From a virus (lineage: Duplodnaviria > Heunggongvirae > Uroviricota > Caudoviricetes), in IMG/VR virus record IMGVR_UViG_3300032167_000073: a stretch of 64,000 bases of DNA. One strand, 5' to 3'. The translations under genes and the position numbers were made by a program. Below the pieces are notes generated by a model, which saw only the letters and a list, made by a program, of their open reading frames with translations, did no database searches and had not been told where the DNA came from. This document shows, in pieces, positions 29,661-61,162 of the stretch. How positions within the stretch are numbered: the stretch's first letter is position 1; each line of letters opens with the position of its first letter.

Positions 29661-29780
29661 AACATTTACATATAAGATTCGCATGATTCGGCTGAAAGGT
29701 TCATCCTTCTAACTAGGTATATTTTGAAGATTTCTAAGCAGAGCCTTTGATTTCCGATGATTGCGAATCTACTTCCCTAA

Positions 29781-29810: not shown

Positions 29811-29813
29811 CTT

Positions 29814-29896: not shown

Positions 29897-29899
29897 AAC

Positions 29900-29987
29900 G
29901 GCGAGTTGTCCGAGTGGTTTATGGTGATGGTTTGCTAAACCATTGGCGGGAAACCGCCCACAGGTTCAAATCCTGTACTCGCCGCCA
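29900..29987 (+). tRNA. tRNA-Ser(GCT)
   Basis: acceptor ggcgagt/actcgcc, anticodon loop tGCTaaa, long variable arm, CCA. Confidence 0.8.
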
Positions 29988-29996
29988 TTTTCCCAA

Positions 29997-30073
29997 TGAT
30001 CTTTAGCTCAGTTGGTCAGAGCAAGTGACTCATAATCACTAAGTCTAGGGTTCAAGCCCCTAAAGATCAACCA
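29997..30073 (+). tRNA. tRNA-Met(CAT)
   Basis: acceptor tgatctt/aagatca, anticodon loop ctCATaa, T-loop ttcaagc, CCA. Confidence 0.75.
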
Positions 30074-30077
30074 TCTC

Positions 30078-30162
30078 GCCGACGTGACGGAATTGGCAAA
30101 CGGAGCGGACTTAAAATCCGCTGCTATCAAGCTTGTGGGTTCAAGTCCCATCGTCGGCACCA
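30078..30162 (+). tRNA. tRNA-Leu(TAA)
   Basis: acceptor gccgacg/cgtcggc, anticodon loop cTTAAaa, long variable arm, CCA. Confidence 0.8.
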
Positions 30163-30169
30163 TTTATAT

Positions 30170-30246
30170 TGCGGAGTAGAGAAGTGGTCATCTCGTCAGC
30201 CTCATGAGCTGAAGATCGCTGGTTCGAATCCAGCCTCTCGCAACCA
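30170..30246 (+). tRNA. tRNA with CAT anticodon (second Met, fMet or Ile2-lysidine type)
   Basis: anticodon arm tcagc-ctCATga-gctga, T-loop ttcgaat, CCA; acceptor with one mismatch. Confidence 0.6.
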
Positions 30247-30251
30247 TCTAT

Positions 30252-30328
30252 CTGGGTGTAGCTCAGTTTGGTAGAGCGCGTGCTTTGGGAGCATGAAGTC
30301 GGGGGTTCGAATCCCTTCACTCAGACCA
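30252..30328 (+). tRNA. tRNA-Pro(TGG)
   Basis: acceptor ctgggtg/cactcag, anticodon loop tTTGGga, CCA. Confidence 0.75.
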
Positions 30329-30331
30329 TTT

Positions 30332-30405
30332 GCAGCAGTAGTTTACTGGTAAAATAGGAGACTTCCACTCTTCGGAAACGGGTTCGATTCCCGCCTGCTG
30401 CACCA
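30332..30405 (+). tRNA. tRNA-Gly(TCC)
   Basis: acceptor gcagcag/ctgctgc, anticodon loop cTTCCac, CCA. Confidence 0.75.
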
Positions 30406-30987
30406 ACGCGCCCTGTCTGCCGCTCAGTGGCGCATGAATAAGTAAGATCAAGCGGCGGTGTCCAGACATCACAATAATCCGAAAGAGATGCCGGGCTCAG
30501 GGAACCGGAGTGGCGGGATGGAGCCGATAAACCCATTCCAGTGCTGGGACGTATGACCTCAGATAGTTGGCGGACAACGAAAAAATCTGGAATTTGCTCG
30601 ATCTGGCTGCGAGTAAGATCAGCGTCTGATTGGCGATTTATGCCGACGGACAGCAGATTGAGGCTTGCAGAGAATTGCGGATGCTGCTGCATGTGTGTCT
30701 GCGAGGGCGAAAGCTTCAATATATGATGCGATACAGGACTAACCAGATCATGACACCGTATCGAATCCACCACAGGATCTTAATGGATGAATCGGATACG
30801 ACGCATGCAGGGCGTTGTGGTGAAAAGTTCCGAGGGTAAACATGGATTGCCTCTTGTCGTGTGGCAGAGGAGGGCAAAGAACGAGGCGTGGGCGAAGTCG
30901 ATCTCTGATCATCATGTCGAAGCTTCGCGTGTATGCGGCAGGCCAAGTTGCAATCCTTGTTTACTTGTAAATCAGTTTTGTTTATTT

Positions 30988-31063
30988 GCTGGCGTAGCTC
31001 AATTGGCAGAGCAGCGGATTTGTAATCCGCAGGTTGTGGGTTCGACTCCCTTCGCCAGCTCCA
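30988..31063 (+). tRNA. tRNA-Thr(TGT)
   Basis: acceptor gctggcg/cgccagc, anticodon loop tTTGTaa, CCA. Confidence 0.8.
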
Positions 31064-31356
31064 GAAATAAATAACATCGGAGGTACACATTATGGCATTC
31101 ATCGAATCAGTCAAGGCGCGAATCAATCTGCTTGAGCAGCGCGATCCCGTTGTCAATGCGCGAATCATTGGCAAGCTGAAGCGAAAGCTGAGGAAGCTTG
31201 AAGCTCTGGAAGCGGTGACGTGCGAATGAACGATTTTGCAATCGCATGCGCAATGGTTACCGGAGTGGTTGCCCTTGCGTGCATGGTCAATCGATTCTTT
31301 CCATCTGATTATCACAAGCAGATCGAAGAAAAGTACAAAGGAGAGTAAGTAGTCAT

Positions 31357-31542
31357 ATGCCTGTGTTCTGGTTTCTGGCATTTCTTGGGCTGATTGTCCT
31401 ATGGTTCCTTCTCGCATTTGCGTATAAGGCAATCGGCAGATTCTTTAAGCGGATATTCAAGGATTCCTACGATGCTATGACGTCGGAAGATCCAAAGGAT
31501 ATATCAATCACAAACGAAAATGACGGAGGTAAAGAAGAATGA
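31357..31542 (+). CDS. small membrane protein (61 aa)
   Basis: hydrophobic N-terminus MPVFWFLAFLGLIVLWFLLAF. Confidence 0.45.
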   Translation: MPVFWFLAFLGLIVLWFLLAFAYKAIGRFFKRIFKDSYDAMTSEDPKDISITNENDGGKEE

Positions 31543-32471
31543 ATAGTGGAAAAATTGGCGGCATCCTGCTTGCTGTGATTCTTGTGATCATTGCTGGCGT
31601 GCTTATCGGCTGTGCAGTACGCATTCCTGCTGGATACGTCGGTATTGTCTATGACATGAACGGCGGCGTTGGCGATGAAGTTCTCACGCAGGGCTGGAAG
31701 CTGGTCGCTCCGACGAAGAAGGTAACGACGTACACCATCGGCCTTGAGCAGTCTGGTCTCACGGCGGAGTCTACACAGGATTCCTCTGGCGATGAGTCGT
31801 TTAACATTCCGACCAGCGATGGTAAGACGGTGAATGTCAGCCTTGAGTTCTCGTACTATTTTGATAGCGAGCGGATTGCCGACACATTTAAGCTCTTCAA
31901 GGGACAGTCTGGCGAGTCGATCAAGACCACGTTTATTAAGCCGAAGATCAAGGCATGGACACAGGAAGTTTCTGCCAATCATCCGGTTGCCGATATCTTC
32001 GGCGATCAGCGAACGGTGATTAACAATGAGCTGGATATTCACCTGAAGGAGAAGTTTGACCAGTACGGCATCATTATCGATACGGTGAACTTCACAGATA
32101 TCCGCGTGGATGAAGAGACTGCAAAGGCTATTCAGCAGAAGGTCAACGCACAGCAGGAACAGGAACTTGCGCGTATTCAGTCTGAGACTGCAAGGATTCA
32201 GGCAGAGAAGGATAAGCAGGTTGCTCTAATTGCGGCGGAAAAGGAAAAAGATGTGGCCTCTGTGAATGCAGAGCGTCAGATCATCGCTGCGCAGGCCGAG
32301 GCAGATGCGCTGATGATTCAGGCAGGAGCCGAAGCGGATGCGAACAAGCTGATTGCCGCATCTCTCACGCCGGAGCTGATCGAGAAGATTAAGTACGAGC
32401 GATGGGATGGCGCAATGCCGAAGGTGTCTGGCGGCATGCCGATTATCGATATCGGCGACGTGGGAGAGTAA
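31539..32471 (+). CDS. SPFH/band-7 (prohibitin/HflK-like) membrane protein
   Basis: N-terminal TM helix, SPFH core GYVGIVYDMNGG...QGWKLVAPTKKVTTY, long Ala/Gln/Glu coiled coil. Confidence 0.7.
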   Translation: MNSGKIGGILLAVILVIIAGVLIGCAVRIPAGYVGIVYDMNGGVGDEVLTQGWKLVAPTKKVTTYTIGLEQSGLTAESTQDSSGDESFNIPTSDGKTVNVSLEFSYYFDSERIADTFKLFKGQSGESIKTTFIKPKIKAWTQEVSANHPVADIFGDQRTVINNELDIHLKEKFDQYGIIIDTVNFTDIRVDEETAKAIQQKVNAQQEQELARIQSETARIQAEKDKQVALIAAEKEKDVASVNAERQIIAAQAEADALMIQAGAEADANKLIAASLTPELIEKIKYERWDGAMPKVSGGMPIIDIGDVGE

Positions 32472-32490
32472 TCTTCCACATAGACACTTG

Positions 32491-32512
32491 CCCGCTTCCC
32501 CTGCGGGCATTT
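32491..32512 (+). terminator. rho-independent terminator
   Basis: gcccgcttcccctgcgggc hairpin + atttc. Confidence 0.4.
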
Positions 32513-32516
32513 CACG

Positions 32517-32606
32517 GGGAGTTACCCAAGCGGCTGAAGGGGGCGGTCTTGAAAACCGCTAGGCGGCAACCCCGCGCAAGGGTTCAAATCCCTTACTCCC
32601 CGCCAT
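32517..32606 (+). tRNA. tRNA-Ser(TGA)
   Basis: acceptor ggggagt/actcccc, anticodon loop cTTGAaa, long variable arm, CCA. Confidence 0.8.
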
Positions 32607-32613
32607 TTTCTTG

Positions 32614-32698
32614 CCGGACTGGTCGGAACTGGCAGACGCGGCGGATTCAAAATCCGTTGTCTTATGACGTGTGGGTTCAAGTCCCACGTCCGGCACCA
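32614..32698 (+). tRNA. tRNA-Leu(CAA)
   Basis: acceptor gccggac/gtccggc, anticodon loop ttCAAaa, long variable arm, CCA. Confidence 0.75.
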
Positions 32699-32818
32699 TA
32701 TATAGAGAAGCTACGAAAACATTGGATGGATAAGCGCATGAAAGACTTGGCGGCTCAGACAGACCAGCCTCGCATAGTGTCTGTCGATTCCGATGATTGC
32801 GCAGCTTCTCTTTTGTTT

Positions 32819-32892
32819 GCAGACATGGTGTAGTGGAAACATATCTGATTCCCATTCAGAGGATGCGGGTTCGATTCCCGTTGTTTGCACCA
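32819..32892 (+). tRNA. tRNA-Gly(CCC)
   Basis: acceptor gcagaca/tgtttgc (with G-U pair), anticodon loop ttCCCat, T-arm gcggg-ttcgatt-cccgt, CCA. Confidence 0.6.
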
Positions 32893-44942: not shown

Positions 44943-45878
44943 GTGACATATACATCGGAGGACTTGAAAATCATGCAGGCATGGCCGCTTGAACGCAAGA
45001 TTCAGGTAACACAAACCAGAATTATGGAGTGGTACAATCACTATAACGGTAAGGTTTATGTAAGCTTTAGCGGTGGCAAGGATTCAACCGTTCTTCTTGA
45101 CCTTGTGCGAAGGATATATCCAGATGTCCCGGCAGTGTTTATTGATACGGGACTGGAATTTCCAGAACTCAGGGAATTTGTAAAATCCATCCCAAACGTA
45201 GTATGGTTAAAGCCAGCAATGAATTTCCGCAAAGTAATAGAAGAGTTCGGATACCCAATGATCAGCAAAAGGGTTGCTGGATATGTTGCAACAGCGAGGC
45301 GTAATCCTGATTCAATGCGTGCGAAATACTTACGTGGCGAAATGGATAGCAAATTGTTTGGCTTCTCAAATGGTAAATATGCATATCTTGTCGATGCGCC
45401 ATTTCGTATTTCAGATTATTGCTGCGAGGTTATGAAAAAGCGACCAAACAAGAAATTTGCAAAAGAGACGGGAAGAGTGCCAATGTTTGCAACGATGGCA
45501 TGTGAATCTGTACACCGCAGGAATGATTGGCTGGTTAATGGCTGCAATGCATTCTCTGACAGAGAGCCCAGATCGAAACCTATGTCTTTTTGGACAGAGA
45601 ATGATATTCTGGATTATTTACATAGGTTTCAGATTCCTTACGCATCCGTATATGGCGATATTATTACGGACAAAAAAGGAAAGTTTAAGACAACCAAATG
45701 TAAGAGGACAGGATGTGTATTTTGTGGCTTTGGGTGTCATTTGGATGGAGAGCCGAATCGATTTCAACAACTAAAGGACACGCATCCAAATCTATGGGAT
45801 TACTGCATGCGCCCATGGGAAAATGGGGGTCTGGGGATGAAAGACGTTCTTGAGTATATTCATGTTCCAATTGAGTAA
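44943..45878 (+). CDS. PAPS reductase-family PP-loop protein (DndC/phage PAPS-reductase-like)
   Basis: PP-loop VSFSGGKDSTVLLDL; C-terminal Cys cluster CKRTGCVFCGFGCH. Confidence 0.65.
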   Translation: MTYTSEDLKIMQAWPLERKIQVTQTRIMEWYNHYNGKVYVSFSGGKDSTVLLDLVRRIYPDVPAVFIDTGLEFPELREFVKSIPNVVWLKPAMNFRKVIEEFGYPMISKRVAGYVATARRNPDSMRAKYLRGEMDSKLFGFSNGKYAYLVDAPFRISDYCCEVMKKRPNKKFAKETGRVPMFATMACESVHRRNDWLVNGCNAFSDREPRSKPMSFWTENDILDYLHRFQIPYASVYGDIITDKKGKFKTTKCKRTGCVFCGFGCHLDGEPNRFQQLKDTHPNLWDYCMRPWENGGLGMKDVLEYIHVPIE

Positions 45879-49691: not shown

Positions 49692-50207
49692 ATGAACAAG
49701 GTTCTTATTGTTGTCGATTATCAGAACGATTTTGTGTTTGGTGCGCTTGGCAGTGCTAATGCGCAGTCGATCTATAACGGCGTAAAAGCGAAGATTGAGC
49801 AGGCGCAGAATGAAGGTACGCATGTGATTTTCACGCTTGATACGCACGATGCGGATTACATGATGACGCAGGAGGGCAAGAAGCTTCCGGTGCAGCATTG
49901 TATTGCCGGGGCACATGGATGGATGGTTGTCCAGAATCTGAATAACCTGAATGGAAATGCACATCAGTGCATCACAAAGCCAACTTTCGGCTATCTTGGC
50001 TGGGATCTTGGCGACTTTGATCAGATTGAAATGATTGGCGTATGCACGGACATCTGCGTTGTGTCCAATGCATTGATTCTCAAGGCGATGTACCCGGAAG
50101 TTGAGATTACTGTTGATGCTTCCTGTTGTGCTGGAACCTCTGTTGAAGCACATAATGCTGCGCTCACCGTCATGAAGTCCTGTCAGATCAATGTGATTGG
50201 AGAGTAA
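49692..50207 (+). CDS. isochorismatase-family hydrolase (nicotinamidase PncA-like)
   Basis: VLIVVDYQNDF start, catalytic-Cys segment IGVCTDICV. Confidence 0.7.
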   Translation: MNKVLIVVDYQNDFVFGALGSANAQSIYNGVKAKIEQAQNEGTHVIFTLDTHDADYMMTQEGKKLPVQHCIAGAHGWMVVQNLNNLNGNAHQCITKPTFGYLGWDLGDFDQIEMIGVCTDICVVSNALILKAMYPEVEITVDASCCAGTSVEAHNAALTVMKSCQINVIGE

Positions 50208-50218
50208 GGAGATTTGCC

Positions 50219-51007
50219 ATGATTAAGTATAATGGCGAAATCGTTAAGCCCGGATATTTCCCGGATGGTACGATTCATTTTAACGCCTCATGTTCAGGCA
50301 AGTCTCATCACACAATCAAGTGGCTGTTTGAGAGCAATGAAGAGTTGTTTACGCTGATTTGCTTAACCAAGCATATCAAGGAGCGTAGTAATAAGGATAT
50401 TCATTTGATTATGCCCTACGTGCCAAATGCACGTATGGATCGCATCAAGAATAGCGACGAGGTGTTCACGCTCAAATACTTTGCCGAAGTGATCAACGAT
50501 CTTGGATTCAATGAAGTTGTTGTCCTTGATCCGCATTCTCATGTTTCCGAAGCGCTCATTGATCGCGCAGTTATTGTATCGGCGAGCGATCTTATTGCTC
50601 ACGTAGCAAGCAGAATCGGCGCACCGCTATTCTTCTATCCCGATGAGGGAGCAATGAAGCGATATTCGGAAGAGGTAAAGGCCAAGTATGTTTTCGGTAT
50701 CAAAAAGCGCGATTGGAAAACCGGAAAGATCCTTGGGCTGGATGTCGTTGGAGATGCCGATGAGATTAGGGGAAAAGATATTCTGATTGTCGATGATATC
50801 TGTTCCCGTGGAGGAACGTTCTATCATAGCGCAAAGAAGCTCAAAGAGCTTGGCGCAGGCAAGATTTATCTGTGCGTTACCCATTGTGAGAATACCATTC
50901 TCGATGGTGAACTTCTTGAATCTGGCCTGATTGAAAAGGTATTTACCACAGGCTCCATCTTCACCGCTTCACATCCAAAGATCGAGGTAATTCAGTATGA
51001 GATGTAA
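50219..51007 (+). CDS. ribose-phosphate pyrophosphokinase (Prs)-family protein; candidate ADPR-pyrophosphate synthetase (Adps-like)
   Basis: LIMPYVPNARMDR (cf. Prs YFGYARQDR), VVLDPHS (cf. DLHA), PRPP-type loop DILIVDDICSRGGT, CVTH; shorter (262 aa) than housekeeping Prs. Confidence 0.65.
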   Translation: MIKYNGEIVKPGYFPDGTIHFNASCSGKSHHTIKWLFESNEELFTLICLTKHIKERSNKDIHLIMPYVPNARMDRIKNSDEVFTLKYFAEVINDLGFNEVVVLDPHSHVSEALIDRAVIVSASDLIAHVASRIGAPLFFYPDEGAMKRYSEEVKAKYVFGIKKRDWKTGKILGLDVVGDADEIRGKDILIVDDICSRGGTFYHSAKKLKELGAGKIYLCVTHCENTILDGELLESGLIEKVFTTGSIFTASHPKIEVIQYEM

Positions 51008-52514
51008 TACGAATCCAATGCTCCTTATCGATTTTTATAAGGCTGTCCATGCGGAAATGCTTCCCAAGGGCATTACCAAATCCGTTTCCTATTTCACGCC
51101 ACGTATGAGCCGTGTGAAGATGTGGGATAGCGTTGTCATGTTTGGCTTGCAGGCGTTTATCAAGACGTATCTGATTGACTATTTCAATCAGGAATTCTTT
51201 AATAAGCCGTATGAAGAGGCTGTCGGCGAGTATAAGCGCGTTATGGACGCTGCACTTGGCAAGGGCGTTTACGGCATTGAGAAGATCGAAAAGCTTCATG
51301 CTCTTGGATATCTGCCTATCAAGATCATTGCACTGCCGGAAGGAACCAAGGTTCCTATGCATGTGCCGATGTTCGGTATTACCAATACGCATGATGATTT
51401 TGCTTGGCTCCCGCAGGCGCTGGAAAGCCTTATTTCCGCTGAAATGTGGCATCCGATGATTGCAGCAACGGTTGGTCACACCTATCGTCAGATTGTCAAT
51501 AAGTATTACGACGAGACGTGTGACGACAATATTTCTCGTTCAAAGGCGCTTGGCGCGTTTGATTTCCGTGGAGAAGAGTGCTTACAGTCTGCTGTCAAGG
51601 CTGGCGCTGGCTGGTGCCTGTCCTTCCTCAATACTGCAACCGTGCCGACAATCCCATATCTTGAGCAGATGTATGATTGTGATTGCACAAAGGAAGCTGT
51701 TGCCTTTGGCAGTGCAAGCACGGAGCATTCTGTTATGTGTTCAAACTTTGCCGTCGATGGCGATGAAGTGACGCTGCTAAAGCGCTTGCTCACGGAGATT
51801 TATCCAAATACAAGCTTCTCCTGCGTGCTGGATAGTTACGATTACTGGAATGTCATCGACAATATCCTTCCGCAGATTAAGGAGGAGATTCTTGCACACA
51901 ACGGCTGTATGCTCATGCGCGGCGATTCTGGCGATTGCGTCGAAGTTGTAACTGAGACTGTCTTTAAGCTTTGGGACATGTTTGGCGGCAAGATCAACTC
52001 CAAGGGTTATAAGGTGCTCGATCCGCATGTCAAGGCGATTTATGGGGATTCCATTACCATTCAGCGTTGCGAGAAGATTTATGAGATTCTTAAAGAGAAT
52101 GGTTTTGCGGCCTGTAATGTGGCGCTCGGCGTTGGCTCGTTCTCTATGCAGTGCATCGAAGAGTATGAGTTCATCGAGGATAGGATTGAGGGTGGCGGTA
52201 TGTATGCCAATGTGCTCAAGCCGTTTACGCGCGACACCTTCTCTTCCTGTATCAAGGCGACATATTGCGAGATCGACGGTAAGCCCGTCCCGATCTTCAA
52301 GAATCCCAAGGACGGCGGCTTTAAGAAGTCTCAGAAGGGATGCTGTATCGTCAGGCGCGATGAAAGCGGAAAGCTCGTCTATACAGATGGTCATACGTGG
52401 AATGAATCTTGTACGAGCACCAATCTTCTTCGTCCGGTCTTCTGTAATGGCGGCATGCTCAGAACACAGAAGCTCAGTGAAGTGCGAGATATCCTGAATG
52501 GAGGAAATTTCTAA
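50997..52514 (+). CDS. nicotinamide phosphoribosyltransferase (Nampt/NadV)-family protein; candidate nicotinamide-ADPR transferase (Namat-like)
   Basis: ~500 aa; N-terminal NPMLLIDFYKAVH (cf. NadV DSYKxxH); overall type II PRTase length/layout. Confidence 0.65.
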   Translation: MRCNTNPMLLIDFYKAVHAEMLPKGITKSVSYFTPRMSRVKMWDSVVMFGLQAFIKTYLIDYFNQEFFNKPYEEAVGEYKRVMDAALGKGVYGIEKIEKLHALGYLPIKIIALPEGTKVPMHVPMFGITNTHDDFAWLPQALESLISAEMWHPMIAATVGHTYRQIVNKYYDETCDDNISRSKALGAFDFRGEECLQSAVKAGAGWCLSFLNTATVPTIPYLEQMYDCDCTKEAVAFGSASTEHSVMCSNFAVDGDEVTLLKRLLTEIYPNTSFSCVLDSYDYWNVIDNILPQIKEEILAHNGCMLMRGDSGDCVEVVTETVFKLWDMFGGKINSKGYKVLDPHVKAIYGDSITIQRCEKIYEILKENGFAACNVALGVGSFSMQCIEEYEFIEDRIEGGGMYANVLKPFTRDTFSSCIKATYCEIDGKPVPIFKNPKDGGFKKSQKGCCIVRRDESGKLVYTDGHTWNESCTSTNLLRPVFCNGGMLRTQKLSEVRDILNGGNF

Positions 52515-52978
52515 TGATCCAGCATGTAAAGTGCAACATTTTTGACTCTGGTGCAGACGTTGTTCTACATCAGGTCAATTGTCAGGGCGCTATGGGCAGC
52601 GGTGTTGCCCTGCAAGTTCGCAAGCGTTTCCCGCGAGTCTACTATGCCTATAAAAAGGCATGCGATGCAAAGGCTGGCGCTCGACGTGATCTGCTTGGCA
52701 TCGCCCAGATCGTCATGGCTGATTCCAATATGTTTATTGCAAACCTGTTTGCTCAGGAGAACTTTGGCTATGACGGCGCATGTTATACCGACTATGACGC
52801 TCTTCGCAAGTGTCTTGAAACTGTAAAAACCAATTGTGTTGGCAAGCGTATTGCCATTCCGTATCTGATGGGTTGTCATCGTGGAGGCGGCGATTGGTCT
52901 ATCGTGTATCAGATGATCGAGGAAGTCTTCTGCGACGATTCAGATGATGTCATTGTCTGCGAATATAACGGAGGCTGA
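52514..52978 (+). CDS. macro domain (ADP-ribose-binding/processing) protein
   Basis: NIFDSGADVVLHQVNCQGAMGSGVA and IAIPYLMGCHRGGGDW match macrodomain glycine-rich loops. Confidence 0.7.
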   Translation: MIQHVKCNIFDSGADVVLHQVNCQGAMGSGVALQVRKRFPRVYYAYKKACDAKAGARRDLLGIAQIVMADSNMFIANLFAQENFGYDGACYTDYDALRKCLETVKTNCVGKRIAIPYLMGCHRGGGDWSIVYQMIEEVFCDDSDDVIVCEYNGG

Positions 52979-52981
52979 TAA

Positions 52982-53780
52982 GATGGACGCTATGAAACTT
53001 AAAGACCAGTGCGTAGAATGGATTCGCAATTGGTTTGAAGAAAACGGCAGCGGATGCAAAGCTGTAATTGGTATTTCAGGCGGCAAGGATTCCACCGTCG
53101 TTGCGGCGCTTTGTGTAGAAGCTCTTGGCCGTGATCGTGTGTTTGGTGTGCTGATGCCCAATGGTGAACAGCCGGATATCGATGATGCGGCAGATGTTGT
53201 GAACCATCTTGGTATTGATTTTGTTCAGATCAACATTGAAGATGCATGTAACGATATTGCAACCGAAATCTGTATGCCATATAGCTTATATCGTTGCCAA
53301 GCAGACTATTCTTATACGTCTGGAGCGATCAGTATGACTGAGCAGGCGATGATCAATCTTCCTCCGCGTATTCGCATGGCAACCTTGTATGCAATCAGCC
53401 AGAGCATCGGTGGTCGCGTAGCCAATACATGCAATCTTTCCGAGGATTGGATTGGTTATTCTACCCGATATGGAGATGGCGCAGGCGATTTTGCTCCGCT
53501 TGGTGGACTGACTTGCAGCGAAGTGGTACAGATTGGGCTTGCGCTTGGTTTGCCGGAAGAGATGGTCAGGAAGGTTCCCAGCGATGGTCTGTGTGGCAAG
53601 ACGGACGAAGACAGCTTTGGCTTCTCTTATGCGGTTCTTGATCATTACATCAGGACGGGAGAGTGCAAAGATATTGCAATCAAGGCAAAGATTGACTATC
53701 TCCACAAAAAGAACGAGTTTAAGCTGAAGCCCATTCCGGTATTTCGCATTCCAATTGAATTCACTTTACGAAGAGGGTGA
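52982..53780 (+). CDS. nadE: NH3-dependent NAD+ synthetase NadE
   Basis: PP-loop VIGISGGKDSTVVAAL, ~266 aa, NadE-like layout. Confidence 0.75.
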
Positions 53781-53784
53781 TTAA

Positions 53785-54621
53785 ATGCCGGAAGAGCTAA
53801 GAAAAGACATGATCATTGAGTCAAGGCTGAGAGAGCACTTGAATCATTACCTGAAAACATATCCAAACGATTGGATTGGCATTTTCCTTCAGGGATCTCA
53901 GAACTACGGTCTGGATTATGAAACCAGCGATATCGACACAAAGATCATTGTTCTTCCATCTCTTGAGGATATTGCGCTTAATAAGCAGCCAATATCGACT
54001 ACGCTTGTCATGCCCAACGATGAACATGTGGATGTCAAGGATATCCGATTGATGTTTGATTGCTTTAAGAAGCAAAACATCAACTTCCTTGAGATCCTGT
54101 TTACAAAATGGAACATCGTCAATCCAAAGTATGACGAGCAGATGAGCGATGTGTTCATTAGACGTGAAGAGATTGCGCATTACAGCAATTATGCAGCTCT
54201 CCATTGCATGCTTGGTATGGTTAATCAGAAACGCAGCATGCTCATGAAGCCGCATCCGTCCGCAGCGGAGGTTGTGAAGAAATATGGTTATGATGGCAAA
54301 CAGCTTCATCATATGGAGCGCATCTTGGAATTCTTCTATCGGTATACAAACGGCGTTCCGTATGAAGAGTGTTTGATCAGTCAGAACCGTGATTATCTGA
54401 TTTCTCTGAAAAAGCAAGAACTTCCACTTCACGATGCGGTGCGTAGAGCAGATGAGATCGTCGATGTGATGACGGACGCTGTAGAGGCGTATAAGGTCGT
54501 CCATGATAGATACGTCAATCATGCTGTAGAAGAATTGCTGAACAAAACGCTTGTTGAAGTTATGAAGTGTGCAATTGAATCCGAGGTAAAAGATGGACTG
54601 GATGAAAGATATGAGCCCTGA
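53785..54621 (+). CDS. minimal nucleotidyltransferase (Pol-beta-like NTase fold)
   Basis: GIFLQGSQNYGLDYETSDIDTKIIV = GS-x9-13-DxD NTase signature. Confidence 0.6.
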   Translation: MPEELRKDMIIESRLREHLNHYLKTYPNDWIGIFLQGSQNYGLDYETSDIDTKIIVLPSLEDIALNKQPISTTLVMPNDEHVDVKDIRLMFDCFKKQNINFLEILFTKWNIVNPKYDEQMSDVFIRREEIAHYSNYAALHCMLGMVNQKRSMLMKPHPSAAEVVKKYGYDGKQLHHMERILEFFYRYTNGVPYEECLISQNRDYLISLKKQELPLHDAVRRADEIVDVMTDAVEAYKVVHDRYVNHAVEELLNKTLVEVMKCAIESEVKDGLDERYEP

Positions 54622-54796
54622 TGAATACAGGCAGAAACATAGGAGATGTTCTACGTGTAAGCATTGCTCACCATTGATCATCAATCATTACTGCAATGTA
54701 AAGGGTAAACCCATTACTTTGTATTCTCTCACAGGCATGTTTTGCAGGTGTTACGACCCGAAGCCCTACGTTTTAATGCACAACGAAATGAGGTAA
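54593..54796 (+). CDS. small zinc-ribbon protein
   Basis: CSTCKHC...CNVKG. Confidence 0.35.
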   Translation: MDWMKDMSPDEYRQKHRRCSTCKHCSPLIINHYCNVKGKPITLYSLTGMFCRCYDPKPYVLMHNEMR

Positions 54797-54800
54797 ATCT

Positions 54801-55067
54801 ATGGAACAGACTCAAAAGAAGTACGGCAAAGAGATGACCGGATACGGAGAAAACAAGCACGATTATATCAGTCAGGATGAAATCACGGTGACGATTACGC
54901 TGGCCGAGTATCGTGAGCTTGTTGAAAAGAACGCAACAAGGCATCAGGAGATCGAGAAGATCAATGCCAAGATGAACGAAAAGGATAGAGAGATCCAGCG
55001 TCTCAAAGATAAGATCGAGCGCATGCTTGTGCTTGATGTGAAGACAGATGAGGAGGAACCCTTCTAA
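54801..55067 (+). CDS. hypothetical coiled-coil protein
   Basis: ORF on + strand. Confidence 0.45.
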   Translation: MEQTQKKYGKEMTGYGENKHDYISQDEITVTITLAEYRELVEKNATRHQEIEKINAKMNEKDREIQRLKDKIERMLVLDVKTDEEEPF

Positions 55068-55612
55068 TGGCTAATGTGAATGTTGATAATAACAAGATGT
55101 GGTTTATCGAGCCGGGTTGCGCCGTGATTTCCCATGGCAGATATGGCGATAAGGACAACAACTATTACGCGATTTCCATTCATGCGTCTCCCAAGTGCAG
55201 GAATGTTGGCGCGATTGAAGAGATGACCGAGGAAGAGGCCAAAGAGTGCGTGCATGTAACTGGACTCGTGTTTAAGAATGCCGAACATATGCGCGGCTAT
55301 CTGGAGTCTATGCAGAAGCTCTATGATCTCATCTTGGAAGATGAGAAGACGAAGGATATGCGTCATCCGCTTTCAATCGACTTTATCCTGAATGAAGTGG
55401 ATGACCTTGGAAGTCCTGTCTGGGTCGAGTTCTTCAGCGGCGCTCTTGTCCCAATGGTGATTACAAATTGTAACCACCAGTATGGCGAGCAGATTCTGGA
55501 TGGCAATGTGTACAAGCTCGCAGACTATGGCCGCACTTGGCGCGTATGGAAGGACAAGCCGACCAAGGAAGAGCGCGATGCGCACGCTTGGAGACAGAAA
55601 GCAGAATCTTGA
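55067..55612 (+). CDS. hypothetical protein (181 aa)
   Basis: ATGG overlap with upstream stop. Confidence 0.5.
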   Translation: MANVNVDNNKMWFIEPGCAVISHGRYGDKDNNYYAISIHASPKCRNVGAIEEMTEEEAKECVHVTGLVFKNAEHMRGYLESMQKLYDLILEDEKTKDMRHPLSIDFILNEVDDLGSPVWVEFFSGALVPMVITNCNHQYGEQILDGNVYKLADYGRTWRVWKDKPTKEERDAHAWRQKAES

Positions 55613-55700
55613 TCTGTGGAGAGCAATTTCTGCAAATCACACGAAAATACTATCATAGTGGGGTATATATCCCATAATTATATAGAAAAGAGGGATAAAT

Positions 55701-55952
55701 ATGGATCTTAAAGACACGATTGATATGATGACCAGCGTTGACCATCAGCAGCGTTTTAAGGCAGAATACGATCAAACCAAGATCAGGCGCGATAGGCTTT
55801 ATAGGATGGTTGAATCCTATGCAAGCGACGCACTTGGTTTCACGCCAAAGTGTCCGATGGAGCTGCTTATGGATCAGATCAAGGCGATGGACAAGTATCT
55901 GTTCATTTTGCTTGAACGAGCGAAGATCGAGGGAATCGATCTGACAACCTGA
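55701..55952 (+). CDS. hypothetical protein
   Basis: ORF on + strand. Confidence 0.4.
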   Translation: MDLKDTIDMMTSVDHQQRFKAEYDQTKIRRDRLYRMVESYASDALGFTPKCPMELLMDQIKAMDKYLFILLERAKIEGIDLTT

Positions 55953-55953
55953 C

Positions 55954-56703
55954 ATGACGGATAGGGTTACATTGCATCAAGGAGACTGCCTTGAGCTGAT
56001 GAAGGAGATCCCAAGTCACAGCATCGATATGGTTTTGTGCGATCTTCCATATGGCGGAGTAACCAAGAACAAATGGGACTCCGCGCTTCCTCTGGATGAG
56101 CTGTGGAGGCAATACAAGCGAATCATCAAGCCTAATGCTGCGATTGTGCTGTTTTCAGACGGCATGTTTGAAGCAAATCTGATGCTCTCCAATCCGAAAA
56201 TGTGGCGGTACAATCTCGTTTGGGATAAGGTGCTTGTCACTGGATTTCTGAATGCAAACCGTATGCCACTCAGATCCCATGAAGAAATCTGCGTCTTCTA
56301 TGATAAACAGCCAGTATATCATCCGCAGAAGACGATAGGGGAGAAGAATCATAGCAGCGGTGCAAAGAAGGATAGAGCAAACCATAATTATGGCTCATTC
56401 GATTTTGTTGATAATTCAGAATCGCTTGGCTGTATGAAGCATCCAAGAAGTATCGTTCGTTTTCAAAAGCCGCACGCTTCTAAGACGGTTCATCCAACTC
56501 AAAAACCTGTTGAGCTGTGTGAATACCTGATCAAAACCTATACTGATGAAAACCATATCGTGCTGGATAACTGTATGGGTTCTGGCACAACGGGCATTGC
56601 CTGCGTCAATACAGGCAGGCGTTTTATCGGTATAGAAAAGGATGAAGGGTATTTCAGTATAGCAGAACGTCGAATTCGTGATGCAATTCATGACAACAAA
56701 TAA
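55954..56703 (+). CDS. DNA methyltransferase, beta-class N6-adenine/N4-cytosine (DPPY family)
   Basis: motif IV CDLPYGG precedes AdoMet motif I DNCMGSGTTGIA; HPTQKPVEL. Confidence 0.8.
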   Translation: MTDRVTLHQGDCLELMKEIPSHSIDMVLCDLPYGGVTKNKWDSALPLDELWRQYKRIIKPNAAIVLFSDGMFEANLMLSNPKMWRYNLVWDKVLVTGFLNANRMPLRSHEEICVFYDKQPVYHPQKTIGEKNHSSGAKKDRANHNYGSFDFVDNSESLGCMKHPRSIVRFQKPHASKTVHPTQKPVELCEYLIKTYTDENHIVLDNCMGSGTTGIACVNTGRRFIGIEKDEGYFSIAERRIRDAIHDNK

Positions 56704-56744
56704 TCCAGAAAAAGTATTGACTGAAACGTGGATTAGATGTATAA
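56701..56744 (+). promoter_or_regulatory. conserved phage promoter module, class 1
   Basis: AATCCAGAAAAAGTATTGACT (56715-56720), N18, TATAAT (56739-56744). Confidence 0.65.
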
Positions 56745-56768
56745 TAATGTCAATCAATACTTATAGGA

Positions 56769-56900
56769 GTGATCGGTATGTTATGTAAGAAATGTTTTAA
56801 GCCGATGAAAGTGGTTGTCCAGTTTACCAAGGAAAAGGCGGTGACATTCAATCGCTGCCCGATCTGCTGGTTTGAAACGAGAAAGACACCTTTTCAATTC
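56769..56900 (+). CDS. small zinc-ribbon protein
   Basis: CKKCFKPM...CPICWF; C-terminal extent uncertain (ORF reads through next promoter module). Confidence 0.35.
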
Positions 56901-56935
56901 CCTAGTTTAAAACCAAAGCAGACAAAGTATAAACA
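56901..56935 (+). promoter_or_regulatory. conserved promoter module, class 2
   Basis: AAAACCAAAGCAGACAAAGTATAAACAG. Confidence 0.45.
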
Positions 56936-56979
56936 GAACAATGCGATTGCTCCACCGGAAAAGAAAAAGGAGCAAGGAA

Positions 56980-58293
56980 ATGTACAACGCATACATTACA
57001 ACAATCCGGGATCTAAGAAAGCACAGCAACGCAGATCGTCTGCAGTGCGCAACAATCTTCGGAAATAACGTCATTGTCGATCTGAGCTATCAGGTCGGTC
57101 AGCGCGTAATCTATTTCCCGGTCGATGGTCAGCTCAGTGAAGAGTTTGCCAAGGCTAATAACCTTGTCCGAATCAAGGATGAAAACGGAAACAACACAGG
57201 CGGATATCTTGACCCGGATAAGCGGAATATCACAGCACTCAAGTTGCGCGGCGAAAAGTCTGATGGTCTGGTTCTTCCGATTAAGGTACTTGAGCCGTAT
57301 GTGGACATCAATACCCTTGTCGATGGCCAGCAGATCAGCGAGCTCAACGGGCATCTGATTTGCCGTAAGTATATTCCACGCAGACAGGCGGCGAAGACGA
57401 CTGGCGGTAACGGAAAGTATAAGGATAAGCGCAAGCCGGAGGATAAGGTTAATTATCCATTCTTCAAGGAGCATATCGACACGGCGCAGCTCGCCTATAA
57501 TCAGGGCGCGTTCAGGCCGGGTGATACATGCTACATCACCTTGAAGATGCATGGAACTTCCGCAAGAACGGCCAACACCATTGAGGTTCGCCGCAAGCCG
57601 ACTCGTTTCTATCATCATCTTTTCCGCACAAAGCCCAAGGAAACCCGTCATTATTCCTGCGTAAGCGGTACGCGCCGTACCACGCTCAGGAATTACGACG
57701 GCGGATACTATGGCAGCAATGCGTTCAGAGAGCAGTATCATGCGATGCTGCGAGATCGTCTGCCCAAGGGTATGTGCGTGTTCTACGAGATCGTTGGCTG
57801 GATTGATGAGAGCAAGACCATTATGGGACGTTGCTCCAATAAGCTGGTTAAGGATAAGGAGTTCACAAAGCAGTATGGTGATGAGACTGTCTTCTCCTAT
57901 GGCTGCGATATCGGCAAGAGCGATATCTATGTCTATCGCATGACTATGAGCAATGAGGATGGTTACGAAGTTGAAATCCCGTGGGAGCAGGTCAAGATCG
58001 AATGTGAAAAGATGGGTGTGAAGTGTGTTCCTGAATTTGAAAAGTTCATTTTCACCACTTGGGAAGACCTCATGGAGCGCGTTGAAAAGTATTACGACGG
58101 CGCAGATCCCATCGGTAAGACGCATGTACGAGAGGGCGTAGTTGTGCGAATTGATAACCGCGAGCACTTTACAGCCTATAAGCACAAGAATTTCAGCTTT
58201 AAGGTGCTTGAAGGAATCATCAAGGATACAGCGGATGCCCCGGATATTGAAGAAGCTGAGGAGCAGATGACAAATGATGTTCAAGACGAATGA
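56980..58293 (+). CDS. ATP-dependent RNA ligase (Rnl2-like nucleotidyltransferase) with N-terminal extension
   Basis: motif I KMHGTS (cf. T4 Rnl2 KIHGTN), motif IV/V REGVVVRIDN...K; start after AAGGAG RBS. Confidence 0.6.
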   Translation: MYNAYITTIRDLRKHSNADRLQCATIFGNNVIVDLSYQVGQRVIYFPVDGQLSEEFAKANNLVRIKDENGNNTGGYLDPDKRNITALKLRGEKSDGLVLPIKVLEPYVDINTLVDGQQISELNGHLICRKYIPRRQAAKTTGGNGKYKDKRKPEDKVNYPFFKEHIDTAQLAYNQGAFRPGDTCYITLKMHGTSARTANTIEVRRKPTRFYHHLFRTKPKETRHYSCVSGTRRTTLRNYDGGYYGSNAFREQYHAMLRDRLPKGMCVFYEIVGWIDESKTIMGRCSNKLVKDKEFTKQYGDETVFSYGCDIGKSDIYVYRMTMSNEDGYEVEIPWEQVKIECEKMGVKCVPEFEKFIFTTWEDLMERVEKYYDGADPIGKTHVREGVVVRIDNREHFTAYKHKNFSFKVLEGIIKDTADAPDIEEAEEQMTNDVQDE

Positions 58294-59302
58294 ACACTCT
58301 CTTGAAACTCCGCAAACTTTGGGCGTTTCAGAATGCAATTCTGACGATAAAACACCCGTTTTATTCATGATGATCGGTCTTCCGGGCAGCGGCAAGTCTA
58401 CTTACGCCAAGGAGATTGCTGCTGACCCTGAAGGTCTCCATCCGGTCATTCTCTCCTCCGATGAGCTCCGCAAGGAGCTCTTTGGAGACGATGAAGATCA
58501 GAGCCATAATGCGCAGGTTTTCGATGAGCTTCACAAGCGCATCAAGGAGAATCTGCAAAATGGCGTGAGCGTCATCTATGATGCGACCAACATCGATAAG
58601 AAGCGCCGCGTCGATTTCTTGCAGTCCATCAAGAAGATTGATTGCATTAAGACCGCTATTGCTGTGATGACTCCGTATGACGTTTGCCTTGAGCGCTGTA
58701 AGAAGCGTGACCGCAAGGTGCCGGAATACGTCATTCGCAGAATGCTCATGAACTACGCGCCGCCTCATATCCATGAGGGATTCGATTATGTCCACTTCGA
58801 CTTTGAGCATGCCGATTTGGACTGCGACGCTCCTATGAAGTATTCTCTGTGCAATCTCTCTCAGCATCCGGGCGGTTTCTTCGATCTGGATCATGAGAAT
58901 AAGCATCATCGTGATACGGTTGGCGTGCATTGCTTCAATGCTATGATGTATCTGTATTTTGCAAAGCCGAACCATAAGCTTTTGCAGCTTGCAGCCCTTC
59001 TTCATGACATTGGTAAGCCGTTTACGAAAACCAAGATGAATAAGCGCAGAGAGTTTGACGGCGACTATCATTATTATCAGCATCACTGTGTTGGCGCATA
59101 TGAATCTCTTTTCTATCTGATTTATCTTGCACTAACCAATAATGAACGCGCATATATCGCCAATCTGATCTATTACCACATGCATCCTTATATGAGCTGG
59201 AAGCAGTCTGAAAAGGCGAAGCTCAGGGATATGCGCCTGATTGGTGAGGACATGTTTGCCGATGTTATGACGCTTCATGAAGCCGACATTGCTGCACATT
59301 GA
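58274..59302 (+). CDS. polynucleotide kinase / HD phosphohydrolase (Pnkp-like end-healing enzyme)
   Basis: Walker A MMIGLPGSGKSTYAKEI, DATNIDKKRR kinase lid; C-terminal HD domain LLHDIGKP ... HH. Confidence 0.65.
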   Translation: MMFKTNEHSLETPQTLGVSECNSDDKTPVLFMMIGLPGSGKSTYAKEIAADPEGLHPVILSSDELRKELFGDDEDQSHNAQVFDELHKRIKENLQNGVSVIYDATNIDKKRRVDFLQSIKKIDCIKTAIAVMTPYDVCLERCKKRDRKVPEYVIRRMLMNYAPPHIHEGFDYVHFDFEHADLDCDAPMKYSLCNLSQHPGGFFDLDHENKHHRDTVGVHCFNAMMYLYFAKPNHKLLQLAALLHDIGKPFTKTKMNKRREFDGDYHYYQHHCVGAYESLFYLIYLALTNNERAYIANLIYYHMHPYMSWKQSEKAKLRDMRLIGEDMFADVMTLHEADIAAH

Positions 59303-59313
59303 GGTGAAATAGA

Positions 59314-59547
59314 ATGAAGAGCAAGAAGAACATGAAAGCTGCGCATGAGATCATGGATAAGATGCAGAAGACGGCAACCGCCTCCGGCATTCTGATGACC
59401 ATCAGAATCATCAAGTCTATTTACAGCGACGAGACAAAGAGCGACAAGGAGAAGCTTGATGCCATTATCGCTTTTGTCGATAGTTCCTATGAAAAGTTTG
59501 AATCCGGGCGCAAGCAGGCAGCAGAAAAGGCGGCGGCTTCTAAGTGA
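59314..59547 (+). CDS. hypothetical small protein
   Basis: ORF on + strand. Confidence 0.4.
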   Translation: MKSKKNMKAAHEIMDKMQKTATASGILMTIRIIKSIYSDETKSDKEKLDAIIAFVDSSYEKFESGRKQAAEKAAASK

Positions 59548-60005
59548 CATATAATAAGGAAGAAATTGCCTCCGTTGCTGATAGCCTGAAATGCGCAGCA
59601 CAGGCTTCTTATATCCCGTTTAACTGCGGCGCAAAATGCCCAGCTTACAATTGGTGCAAAAGCGGTACTGACGGGTTTGACAAGGATAAAGATTGCATCT
59701 TTGATCAAGCCGCTGTGATGCTTGAAGATTACATGAAGATCCTGCCAGAGCCTCTAAAGCCTCTCACAGTGGATGAGATGATTGCCTATGTGCAGGATAA
59801 GAACAGCGTCCCCGTTCTGTATTGGCTTTCACGCGATCCAAAGCGTAAATCTGGATGGGAGCATGTCGTTTCAATCACTTATGGCATTAATTTCAACGAT
59901 CAGAATCAAATGGATTTTGTGCGTGAAGGATACGGAAAAAGATATGTTGTCTTTACGAAAAAGCCATCTGATGATGAAATCGCTGCTGTCCAGTGGAGGG
60001 ATTAG
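59544..60005 (+). CDS. hypothetical protein (153 aa)
   Basis: ORF on + strand. Confidence 0.45.
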   Translation: MTYNKEEIASVADSLKCAAQASYIPFNCGAKCPAYNWCKSGTDGFDKDKDCIFDQAAVMLEDYMKILPEPLKPLTVDEMIAYVQDKNSVPVLYWLSRDPKRKSGWEHVVSITYGINFNDQNQMDFVREGYGKRYVVFTKKPSDDEIAAVQWRD

Positions 60006-60008
60006 CCG

Positions 60009-60255
60009 TATGCAATCAGGCGAAACAAGATCAAACGGGTGCTTTGTTGCACAGCTTGCAGATTATCTTCCGCATATGGTGTCAAAGGTAATCTGCCTCA
60101 AATGCTATAAGCGATGGATAGCAGTCCGTCCAACACATACATTGCTTGAATCGCTGGAATGTCCAAACTGCGGTGCCGGATACGTTATTGAAACGGGACA
60201 GGTATTGAAAAACAGCGATTCTTACAACGAAGAGGAAGTAACACATTATGAATAG
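60009..60255 (+). CDS. small zinc-ribbon protein
   Basis: CLKCYKRW...CPNCGAGY. Confidence 0.4.
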
Positions 60256-61162
60256 AGACGCACTTGGCGACCGAATGAAAGCATATCAAAATGTGCATCG
60301 CATTTATCTGACTAGGCGCATGCCTCTGATTATCCGTATTGATGGCAAGGCGTTCCGTAGTTATACCCGCAATTTTACGCAGCCATATGACAACGTTCTC
60401 ATTTCTTCGATGCAGCAGACAGCGAAGTATCTGTGCGAAAACATCGAGGGGTGCAAGCTTGCTTATACGCAGTCGGACGAGATTTCACTTCTTCTGACGG
60501 ATTATAAGACGTTCAATACGCAGCCATGGTTTAGCAAGAATTTGCAGAAGATGGTGTCCGTCGCAGCAAGTATGGCGACTATGGCGTTCAACCAAGCATT
60601 TACCGATGCAACTTTTGATGCAGCAAATTATGCTTACAACGATGAATTGCATAACACTACGGAAGATCGTCAAAAGGCATATGCCGAAGTAATGAACAGG
60701 TATAAAGCAAAATGTGGCATGGCAATGTTCGATGCCCGTGCATTCCTTCTCCCCAAAGAAGAGGTGTGCAATTACTTCATCTGGCGGCAGCAGGACGCAT
60801 CTAGGAATTCCATCAATATGCTTGGCAGAGCATATTTCTCTCATAAAGAGATGAACGACAAGAATACCAGCCAGATTCAGGACATGCTCATTGAAAAGTA
60901 TGGTATCAACTGGAACGACATTGAAACGCATAAGAAGCGCGGTTCCTGTGTGATCAAGGAGACCTACGAAACGAAGGTTCCAATGACAAAGGTTCGTCCA
61001 AAGAAGGATTCTCCTGAAAACTGGCAGGACATTGAATTCATTCCTATCGCACCAGAACTCGATGTTCCAACCATTCAGCGATCCAGATGGATTGTTGATA
61101 TGGAGATCCCAATTTTTACAAAAGACCGTGAGTATATCGATAAGTATGTACGAGGAGGCTGA
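60248..61162 (+). CDS. Thg1-like protein (tRNA-His guanylyltransferase family 3'-5' polymerase)
   Basis: YLTRRMPLIIRIDGKAFRSYTRNFTQPYD and AYTQSDEISLLL match Thg1/TLP catalytic core. Confidence 0.7.
   Translation: MNRDALGDRMKAYQNVHRIYLTRRMPLIIRIDGKAFRSYTRNFTQPYDNVLISSMQQTAKYLCENIEGCKLAYTQSDEISLLLTDYKTFNTQPWFSKNLQKMVSVAASMATMAFNQAFTDATFDAANYAYNDELHNTTEDRQKAYAEVMNRYKAKCGMAMFDARAFLLPKEEVCNYFIWRQQDASRNSINMLGRAYFSHKEMNDKNTSQIQDMLIEKYGINWNDIETHKKRGSCVIKETYETKVPMTKVRPKKDSPENWQDIEFIPIAPELDVPTIQRSRWIVDMEIPIFTKDREYIDKYVRGG

Follow-up and report, generated by a model that had tools for sequence, protein, structure and literature searches.

A NARP1-derived phage island with a remodelled Namat pocket, a nicotinamidase and NadE that appears to rebuild NAD+ through deamidated intermediates

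The subject of this work is an island of six consecutive plus-strand open reading frames (ORFs) at positions 49692-54621 of a 64,000-nucleotide stretch of Caudoviricetes DNA (IMG/VR record IMGVR_UViG_3300032167_000073), which as a whole is called the window below. The ORFs lie exactly where the sequence-only reading had put them, and the domain families it had named hold in profile searches. The first ORF (49692-50207, 171 aa) has the isochorismatase fold (PF00857, E-value 3.6e-23, 83 bits). It is followed by a Prs-like protein, the putative Adps (50219-51007, 262 aa; TIGR01251, 116.6 bits; phrog_619, 5e-69), and by a Nampt-like protein, a variant of Namat (50997-52514, 505 aa; NAMPT_N and NAPRTase domains; PRK09198, 428 bits; phrog_448, 5e-157). 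A macro-domain protein (52514-52978, 154 aa; PF01661, 22.9 bits; phrog_335 'phosphatase', 4e-41), a synthetase of nicotinamide adenine dinucleotide (NAD+) of the NadE family (52944-53780, 278 aa; NAD_synthase PF02540, 1.7e-49, 168.6 bits) and a nucleotidyltransferase (53785-54621, 278 aa; RlaP PF10127, 22.8 bits at a cutoff of 23; phrog_388, 4e-13) complete the row. The genes abut or overlap, the adps and namat genes by 11 nucleotides, and Shine-Dalgarno-like sequences are present. The most likely start of NadE is the ATG at 52983, which follows a GGAGG just past the macro stop codon, rather than the opening of its ORF at 52944. Scans for promoters and terminators between 48.5 and 56 kb gave nothing exceeding the shuffled expectation, so the operon boundaries could not be called. 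When the island was compared at the nucleotide level with 50,697 phage records, no match was returned.

The second and third genes tie the island to a known phage pathway. NARP1 consists of Adps and Namat (Osterman et al. 2024; phages Bas63, SPbetaL1 and Fado), and a preprint of January 2026 extended it to NARP1-AP, in which NARP1 operons include a macro-domain phosphatase of ADP-ribose (ADPR)-1''-phosphate, named Adpp (Osterman et al. 2026; Vibrio phage Gary). Adpp counters the aRES defence and is found in 15% of NARP1 phages; RyDEP, another accessory gene, channels cyclic ADPR signals into NARP1. The Adps of the window is 42% identical to the validated Adps of SPbetaL1 (tblastn, 5e-47), an enzyme that made no phosphoribosyl pyrophosphate (PRPP), and the top true Prs in the PDB matches it with 74.6 bits only. 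The PRPP-type loop DILIVDDICSRGGT claimed earlier for the 262-aa protein is present. Its pyrophosphate (PP) loop, VDDICSRGGTF at 50789-50821, has DDLSSFGGTF as its SPbetaL1 counterpart, the catalytic hairpin GIKKRDWKTG at 50696-50725 fits the Adps pattern K-x-R...T-G with its hairpin Lys, and the alpha11-alpha12 module at the C-terminus of Prs is missing. A remodelled PP loop, the K-x-R...T-G hairpin and the loss of that module are the family marks given in the Adps structure paper.

The Namat of the window matches the crystal sequences of SPbetaL1 Namat, 9W5X and 9W5W, with 398 bits, compared with 160 bits against the Nampt of Xanthomonas (Xcc) and about 138 bits against human Nampt. Adps stands next to Namat in 192/192 phage loci with adequate flanks. 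Together with the loop, the hairpin Lys and the short C-terminus of Adps, these scores bear out the earlier assignment of the pair to the NARP1 families and not to housekeeping Prs and NadV. We consider it very probable that the island is a conserved NAD+ module derived from NARP1, in which Adps would convert ADPR and ATP to ADPR pyrophosphate (ADPR-PP) and AMP.

The pocket that binds the pyridine base is where this Namat departs from its relatives. In 9W5X, D215 hydrogen-bonds the amide of nicotinamide, D215 and A242 are both nicotinamide contacts, and the D215A mutation of the SPbetaL1 enzyme lowered NAD+ synthesis 8-fold (Namat structure paper). When the window protein is aligned to 9W5X, its 'lnTATvp' falls on 'tgTDTip', so that A214 (codons N212-T-A214-T-V, 51630..51644, plus strand) takes the place of SPbetaL1 D215, the equivalent of human Nampt D219. 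Beside the catalytic His, in G-S-A-S241-T-E-H (51708..51728, plus strand), S241 replaces A242; additionally, N212 stands for G213 and G186 for H187. Kept are D12, Y14, R39 (the clamp Arg, R40 in SPbetaL1), F188, R191, the Arg and Asp of the catalytic core, F382 (F392 in SPbetaL1) and the TRD motif.

These substitutions belong to a whole subfamily. A search of 1.84 billion cluster representatives yielded 3327 relatives of Namat, and among the best 150 of these 3327 column 215 (SPbetaL1 numbering) holds Asp in 95, Ala in 33 and Ser in 18, which places about a third (51/150) in the Ala/Ser type. Column 242 holds Ala in 94 and Ser in 52 of the same 150, and the set with a residue other than Asp at 215 nearly coincides with the set with Ser at 242. 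The Ala/Ser(/Val) sequences group into a single clade in a neighbour-joining tree; its 44 tips are separate from the 94 tips of the Asp/Glu sequences. When all alignment columns were ranked by how well they separate the two types, the group-defining column 215 was followed by 187, 242, 240, 239, 185 and 213, all of them within the three short segments that bear the nicotinamide contacts F189/R192, D215 and A242. Columns 187, 213, 215 and 242 we take to correspond to H191, G217, D219 and A244 of human Nampt. In the human enzyme H191, G217 and A244 are listed as inhibitor-resistance sites, and Asp219 is described as fundamental to substrate specificity, D219S being listed as a mutation that switches substrate affinity (Khan et al. 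2006, as cited in PMC4919578 and PMC7096376). The two solved structures of phage-type Namats, 9W5X and 9KE8, are both of the Asp type. With its amide-binding Asp replaced by Ala and the surrounding pocket remodelled, the variant probably does not add nicotinamide, as the sequence-only reading had assumed for Namat. It would instead join nicotinic acid to ADPR-PP, releasing pyrophosphate and nicotinic acid adenine dinucleotide (NaAD), a reaction towards which we lean slightly.

The gene neighbourhoods follow the same division. We collected 243 IMG/VR phage loci in three scans, aimed at relatives of the window, diverse Ala/Ser-type and diverse Asp-type sequences, typed the Namat of each and screened the ORFs of all six frames with iterated profiles built from the six proteins of the island. 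The residue pairs at columns 215 and 242 were Ala and Ser in 98 loci, Ser and Ser in 63, Asp and Ala in 74 and Glu and Ala in 8, so Ala or Ser occupies column 215 in 161/243. Co-occurrence was counted in the 192 loci that are flanked by at least 4 kb on each side (135 Ala/Ser, 57 Asp/Glu). The 84 loci with Ala at 215 contain the nicotinamidase in 84, NadE in 82, Adps in 84 and the macro gene in 25 cases; for the 51 loci with Ser the counts are 51, 51, 51 and 43. Asp-type loci, also 51, have Adps in all and the macro gene in 8 and are devoid of nicotinamidase and NadE (0 and 0), as are the six with Glu, where Adps is found six times and the macro gene never. Nicotinamidase and NadE thus occur together in 133/135 Ala/Ser-type loci and in 0/57 of the Asp/Glu type (Fisher p = 5e-47, uncorrected for shared ancestry); the two Ala/Ser-type loci without a NadE match are L058 and L146. 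The placement of both genes in one module with the core pair, as had been proposed, is therefore well founded. The Ala/Ser loci cover 10 clusters at 70% Namat identity, and their order is typically iso-adps-namat-(macro)-nadE with few rearrangements. Such a grouping of nicotinamidase, Adps, Namat, macro and NadE is far beyond chance, and the loss of the amide-binding Asp with the remodelling of its pocket is the likely reason why nicotinamidase and NadE are always present. The earlier view that all six genes serve NAD and ADP-ribose chemistry stands for these five and fails for the nucleotidyltransferase, which has homologues in 5/323 loci.

The module is also found outside these loci. In a single-protein scan of bacterial genomes it was present in 47 contigs of bacterial bins, with the nicotinamidase in 47/47 and NadE in 40/47; the bins are Lachnospiraceae, Ruminococcus, Oscillospiraceae, Acutalibacteraceae and Filifactor genomes. 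Among INPHARED records 2040 have a Namat or Nampt homologue, 48 have NadE, and 7, all from the human gut, have the nicotinamidase family of the island. Carriers of the module include the code-15 gut phage Phass-1 and a phage contig from Mexican faeces. In the TAG-recoded Phass-1 (OQ749652.1, positions 96860-101298 of the record; L083 in our set) the order is nicotinamidase, Prs, Nampt, a small ORF and NadE, and the genes are annotated generically, NadE and the small ORF being labelled 'hypothetical'.

One would argue that this is an ordinary NARP1-AP system whose Namat still uses nicotinamide, that the pocket changes are tolerated drift, and that nicotinamidase and NadE merely boost the Preiss-Handler salvage of the host (PncA, PncB, NadD, NadE) in parallel. 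The Namat catalytic-core residues are indeed all intact, the 8-fold loss of SPbetaL1 D215A leaves that enzyme some activity, and stray NAD-salvage genes do occur in phages. However, the pocket residues and the two genes are linked in an all-or-none manner, the coordinated changes cluster in the nicotinamide pocket, and a nicotinamidase made by the phage would use up the very base that a nicotinamide-dependent Namat, two genes further along, relies on. For salvage by the host in parallel, PncB and NadD would be needed as well, neither of which is supplied. Thus we find this explanation unlikely.

The two additional enzymes look functional. The nearest solved structures of the isochorismatase-like protein are nearly all nicotinamidases or pyrazinamidases (5zn8, 3s2s, 3o90, 1im5, 3pl1, 2h0r), and its catalytic triad D9/K96/C122 and metal ligands D50/H52/H69 are invariant in 116/116 module homologues. 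It is predicted to be a catalytically competent nicotinamidase of the PncA type, which would convert nicotinamide to nicotinic acid and NH3. NadE reaches 166.7 bits with TIGR00552 (cutoff 63.65), its best PDB matches being 2e18 (2e-36) and 3fiu (2e-25). It carries SGGKDS at residues 45-50, a P-loop conserved as SGGxDS in 112/112 homologues, and as a single-domain protein (265-278 aa) without a glutaminase it is of the NH3-dependent type. Its expected reaction would be that of NaAD, ATP and NH3 to NAD+.

The macro protein is 40.6% identical to a protein of Vibrio phage 1.063.O (BLASTP, 1e-33), 36.5% to that of RYC and 29% to the validated Adpp of Vibrio phage Gary (9e-13), the published Adpps being taken from Table S1 of the NARP1-AP preprint. 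Its PDB matches include the ADPR-1''-phosphate phosphatase Poa1p (6lfq and 6lft, 3e-6 to 7e-6) and macro domains of the DarG/TARG1 clade. Neither H19 nor N22 varies across the 58 macro proteins of modules and the 6 published Adpps compared; the catalytic residues of the Poa1p type are His23, Asn26, Ser30 and Gly33 (PMC12846349). The gene is present in 68/135 Ala/Ser-type loci, mostly between Namat and NadE, and is therefore an optional part of the module. As an Adpp-type enzyme it would dephosphorylate ADPR-1''-phosphate to ADPR. The macro and Adps genes bear on the reading of the island as a general auxiliary metabolic cassette, which would raise NAD+ for replication in NAD-limited gut anaerobes and not serve counter-defence. 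Adps needs free ADPR, which according to the NARP1 work accumulates only when an NADase defence fires, and the only role known for the Adpp-type macro is to counter aRES; in favour of the cassette, this is how large gut phages rich in NAD-consuming and NAD-producing genes have been described. The cassette reading is compatible with the chemistry proposed here, from which it differs in purpose alone, and we judge it quite improbable.

We have an indication of how the five genes could work together, and the island appears to be a five-gene NARP1 variant that runs through deamidated intermediates. A host NADase would split NAD+ into ADPR and nicotinamide, which feed the module; if an enzyme of the aRES type yielded ADPR-1''-phosphate instead, the macro protein would dephosphorylate it to ADPR. 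Nicotinamide would be deamidated, ADPR would be converted to ADPR-PP, nicotinate would be joined to ADPR-PP to form NaAD, and NadE would amidate NaAD to NAD+. A nicotinate-specific transferase fed by the products of an NADase needs a nicotinamidase upstream and a NaAD amidase downstream, which are exactly the two added genes. This scheme is the simplest one that uses every conserved gene without any host enzyme. That the module runs through nicotinate and NadE we hold to be probable. We put at roughly one half the probability of the full proposal, namely that a large and ancient Namat clade of gut phages catalyses a previously undescribed transfer of nicotinic acid to ADPR-PP, and that nicotinamidase, Adps, this nicotinate ADPR-transferase and NadE would form a self-contained four-enzyme 'deamido-NARP1' which needs neither PncB nor NadD of the host. 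Its role would be anti-defence.

The donor substrate is where classical Preiss-Handler salvage has to be weighed. According to this explanation the Prs-like protein makes PRPP, the Nampt-like variant makes nicotinic acid mononucleotide (NaMN), NadD of the host and NadE of the phage complete the route, and ADPR-PP is uninvolved. The clamp region of Namat gives it some ground. The double mutation of R40 and F392 in Namat abolished the use of ADPR-PP and kept that of PRPP. The clamp-loop stacking position (R40; Arg, Lys or Tyr in the family) is R39 in the window and Arg in 80/80 members of the clade. The published Namat signature G-S-X-Phi-X-Phi-X-Phi-T-R-D, with aromatics at positions 3 and 7, is interrupted in the window, which reads GS-F-S-M-Q-[23 extra aa]-TRD; the aromatic at position 3, F382, is retained and that at position 7 aligns to a Cys. 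The clamp-helix (SCH) segment between GS and TRD, F382-F410 (52140..52226, plus strand), is thereby enlarged to 29 aa from 6. Nested in it is a 14-aa insertion, YEFIEDRIEGGGMY (52164-52205, plus strand), that only the window sequence carries among 80 close relatives. Two other relatives have different and longer insertions at the same point, so the loop seems to be an insertion hotspot. Spacing between GS and TRD is 6-7 aa in Asp/Glu-type Namats and 15-20 aa in most of the Ala/Ser type; six Ala/Ser-type representatives have 6 aa, and some members of this type retain the whole canonical clamp motif.

The altered adenine clamp of most members, the formation of nicotinamide mononucleotide (NMN) from PRPP by the validated Namat in vitro, and the pncB-nadD-nadE clusters that a gut jumbo-phage survey annotated, like NAMPT and pncA, by KEGG only, are all on the side of classical salvage. 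NadD, the one enzyme left to the host, is universal among hosts. However, the PP loop, hairpin and truncated C-terminus of the window Adps are the same as in Adps proteins linked to Asp-type Namats, its validated relative made no PRPP, and R40 and F392, needed for ADPR-PP and not for PRPP, are conserved. Neither NadD (or NMNAT) nor PncB is among the recurrent neighbours in the module or within 2.5 kb of it in the 135 loci, and a search for a further conserved module gene (NadD, PncB or a transporter) returned only lineage-specific accessories. Additionally, the macro Adpp, whose sole known role in the pathway is the supply of ADPR, is encoded in half of the loci. For these reasons classical salvage is an improbable account of the module.

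Several points count against the transfer of nicotinate to ADPR-PP even so. The second clamp aromatic, Y396, is lost and an insertion of 9-24 aa breaks the Namat signature in most members, the window included, so the preference for ADPR-PP over PRPP is not assured. The Ala/Ser type is a single clade, which makes its co-variation with the two genes one ancient event followed by long retention, not a series of independent repeats. Human Nampt D219A is listed as a loss of activity and only D219S as a specificity switch, yet Ala is commoner than Ser in the subfamily. The Lys or Asn at column 213 is only suggestive as a candidate for binding the carboxylate, and no residue is tied to the carboxylate. 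The Francisella enzyme 3fiu presumably amidates NaMN, and as the relatives of the phage NadE include both it and the standard NadE 2e18, specificity for NaAD is unreadable from the sequence. Lastly, the detour through nicotinate spends extra ATP without a clear gain. It may have evolved because hosts such as gut Clostridia rapidly deamidate or lose free nicotinamide; such fast deamidation, the trapping of a membrane-permeant base as a charged acid, and the irreversibility of the last step are speculative reasons for it.

Some accessory genes accompany the module. A NADAR-domain protein (PF08719, 2.7e-27) lies between macro and NadE in 24 Ala/Ser-type loci (for example L097:9910-10326), and a SLOG-family YAcAr protein lies in or beside the module in 16 (L015:15058-15546). 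A protein of about 150 aa with a DxD-like N-terminal motif and no Pfam match sits between Namat and NadE in 24 loci where this slot has no macro match (L051:11437-11871), and it might be an alternative phosphatase. Also, many representatives of the Namat family (P0002, P0024, P0030, P0065 and others) reach lengths of 550-1100 aa, and in these proteins the match to Namat is broken up into 2-4 stretches. Most of their inserted segments have no Pfam match, P0065 having a weak LAGLIDADG match; they may represent inteins, inserted homing endonucleases or read-through in the gene calls.

The sixth gene, the nucleotidyltransferase at 53785-54621, is better placed elsewhere. Its only family signals are RlaP, a Pol-beta nucleotidyltransferase of the 'RNA repair pathway', and a generic phage nucleotidyltransferase PHROG, and it has no relative among the solved structures. 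It was considered as the missing adenylyltransferase step and rejected, being Pol-beta/RlaP-like and not of the HIGH-motif kind, and occurring in so few loci. In 4/5 of those loci (tblastn) the homologue stands beside genes for an RNA ligase or for a fusion resembling polynucleotide kinase with an HD domain (PNK-HD), directly abutting them in two lineages. The RlaP signal, the absence from nearly all modules and these neighbours assign it to a cassette of apparent RNA-repair genes that starts right after the NAD module and spans 53785-61162. The cassette region holds an N6/N4 DNA methylase (55954-56703), an RNA ligase with a PHA02142 OB domain (56941-58293), an AAA_33 kinase with an HD phosphohydrolase that resembles a polynucleotide kinase/phosphatase (58274-59302) and a Thg1-like 3'-5' polymerase (60248-61162). 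Several related phages also have homologues of the RNA ligase, the PNK-HD protein and the nucleotidyltransferase a few kb from the NAD module.

The window as a whole looks like part of a large phage, with every gene on one strand, a steady GC skew, and genes for clamp-like, primase-like, anti-repressor, transposase-like and reverse-transcriptase-like proteins. ARAGORN called 16 tRNA genes on the plus strand, in two clusters at 24355-32892, one of them (24624-24697) with an abnormal 2-nucleotide anticodon. It called no suppressor tRNA in the window, in contrast to the code-15 background of the module relative Phass-1. Just upstream of the tRNA cluster lie the reverse-transcriptase-like ORF (22654-23748; phrog_1423, 8e-111) and the transposase-like ORF (19897-21339; phrog_506, 9e-33), a pair that could be a group II intron, a retron or an element of the diversity-generating retroelement (DGR) type, or an insertion sequence (IS) element. 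An ORF resembling phosphoadenosine phosphosulfate (PAPS) reductase (44943-45878; phrog_424, 4e-48) and a 727-aa protein with a DNA-methyltransferase-like region (2252-4435), taken with the methylase at 55954-56703, suggest that the phage has several DNA-modification functions.

NAD+ depletion is among the commonest anti-phage strategies of bacteria, one to which phages respond most commonly with NARP1. If the proposed pathway is right, nicotinate transfer onto ADPR-PP would be a new reaction of NAD biochemistry, and the counter-defence pathway would have diversified at the pyridine-base end as well as at the ADPR end, where Adpp and RyDEP act. The availability of nicotinamide would become a possible further battleground between phage and host. 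A simple annotation rule would also follow: residues 215 and 242 of Namat, taken with nicotinamidase and NadE neighbours, tell apart two pathway types whose Namats current pipelines both label 'nicotinamide/nicotinate phosphoribosyltransferase'. The Ala/Ser subfamily is not rare. Its abundance among the large phages of gut Clostridia gives it a bearing on how phages and hosts interact in the guts of humans and animals, and the biochemical prediction is directly testable.

A full-text literature search combining NadE, nicotinamidase, nicotinate or NaAD with NARP1 or Namat found no earlier description of the variant, and the survey of viral NAD and ADP-ribose systems from the Aravind laboratory does not mention the genes of the module. 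For the macro gene, whose extension was published in January 2026 as NARP1-AP, the earlier claim that the island goes beyond the steps of known systems is out of date. What is new here is a module descended from NARP1 in which the base pocket has been remodelled and two further enzymes are obligatory; it is widespread among phages of gut Clostridia.

Compared with NARP1 itself, the island shares the adjacent Adps and Namat genes, a Namat nearer to that of SPbetaL1 than to Nampts, and R40, F392 and the catalytic core. It differs in the replacement of D215 by Ala and of A242 by Ser, in the interrupted clamp signature GSxPhixPhixPhiTRD, in carrying the nicotinamidase and NadE that all canonical loci lack, and in its proposed transferase product, which would be NaAD and not NAD+. 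With NARP1-AP it has in common a macro gene of the same family in the operon, up to 41% identical to published Adpps and with the His and Asn conserved. Unlike in NARP1-AP, this gene follows Namat and does not stand between Adps and Namat, is optional and accompanies the nicotinamidase/NadE form. NARP2 (Nampt and Nmnat, phage KVP40) and NARP3 (PnuC and a NadR-like enzyme, phage Bas30) are likewise phage-encoded restorations of NAD+ against NADase defences. The module contains no HIGH-motif adenylyltransferase, NadR or PnuC, nor do such families recur among its neighbours within 2.5 kb in the 135 loci, and the neighbouring nucleotidyltransferase is Pol-beta/RlaP-like; NARP3 was rejected as its identity because of the composition of that system.

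Like the bacterial Preiss-Handler route, the module would start with a PncA-type deamidation and end with NadE acting on a deamido dinucleotide. Unlike that route, it has no PncB or NadD; in the reading we favour, Adps and a Nampt-family transferase that would act on ADPR-PP stand in for the two steps in the middle. The closest parallel at the level of single residues is the D219S mutant of human Nampt, where in the same family and at the same position the replacement of Asp alters the accepted pyridine base. However, that is an engineered point mutant working with PRPP, whereas the phage enzymes form a subfamily that is natural and ancient, is coupled to Adps and has several pocket changes in coordination.

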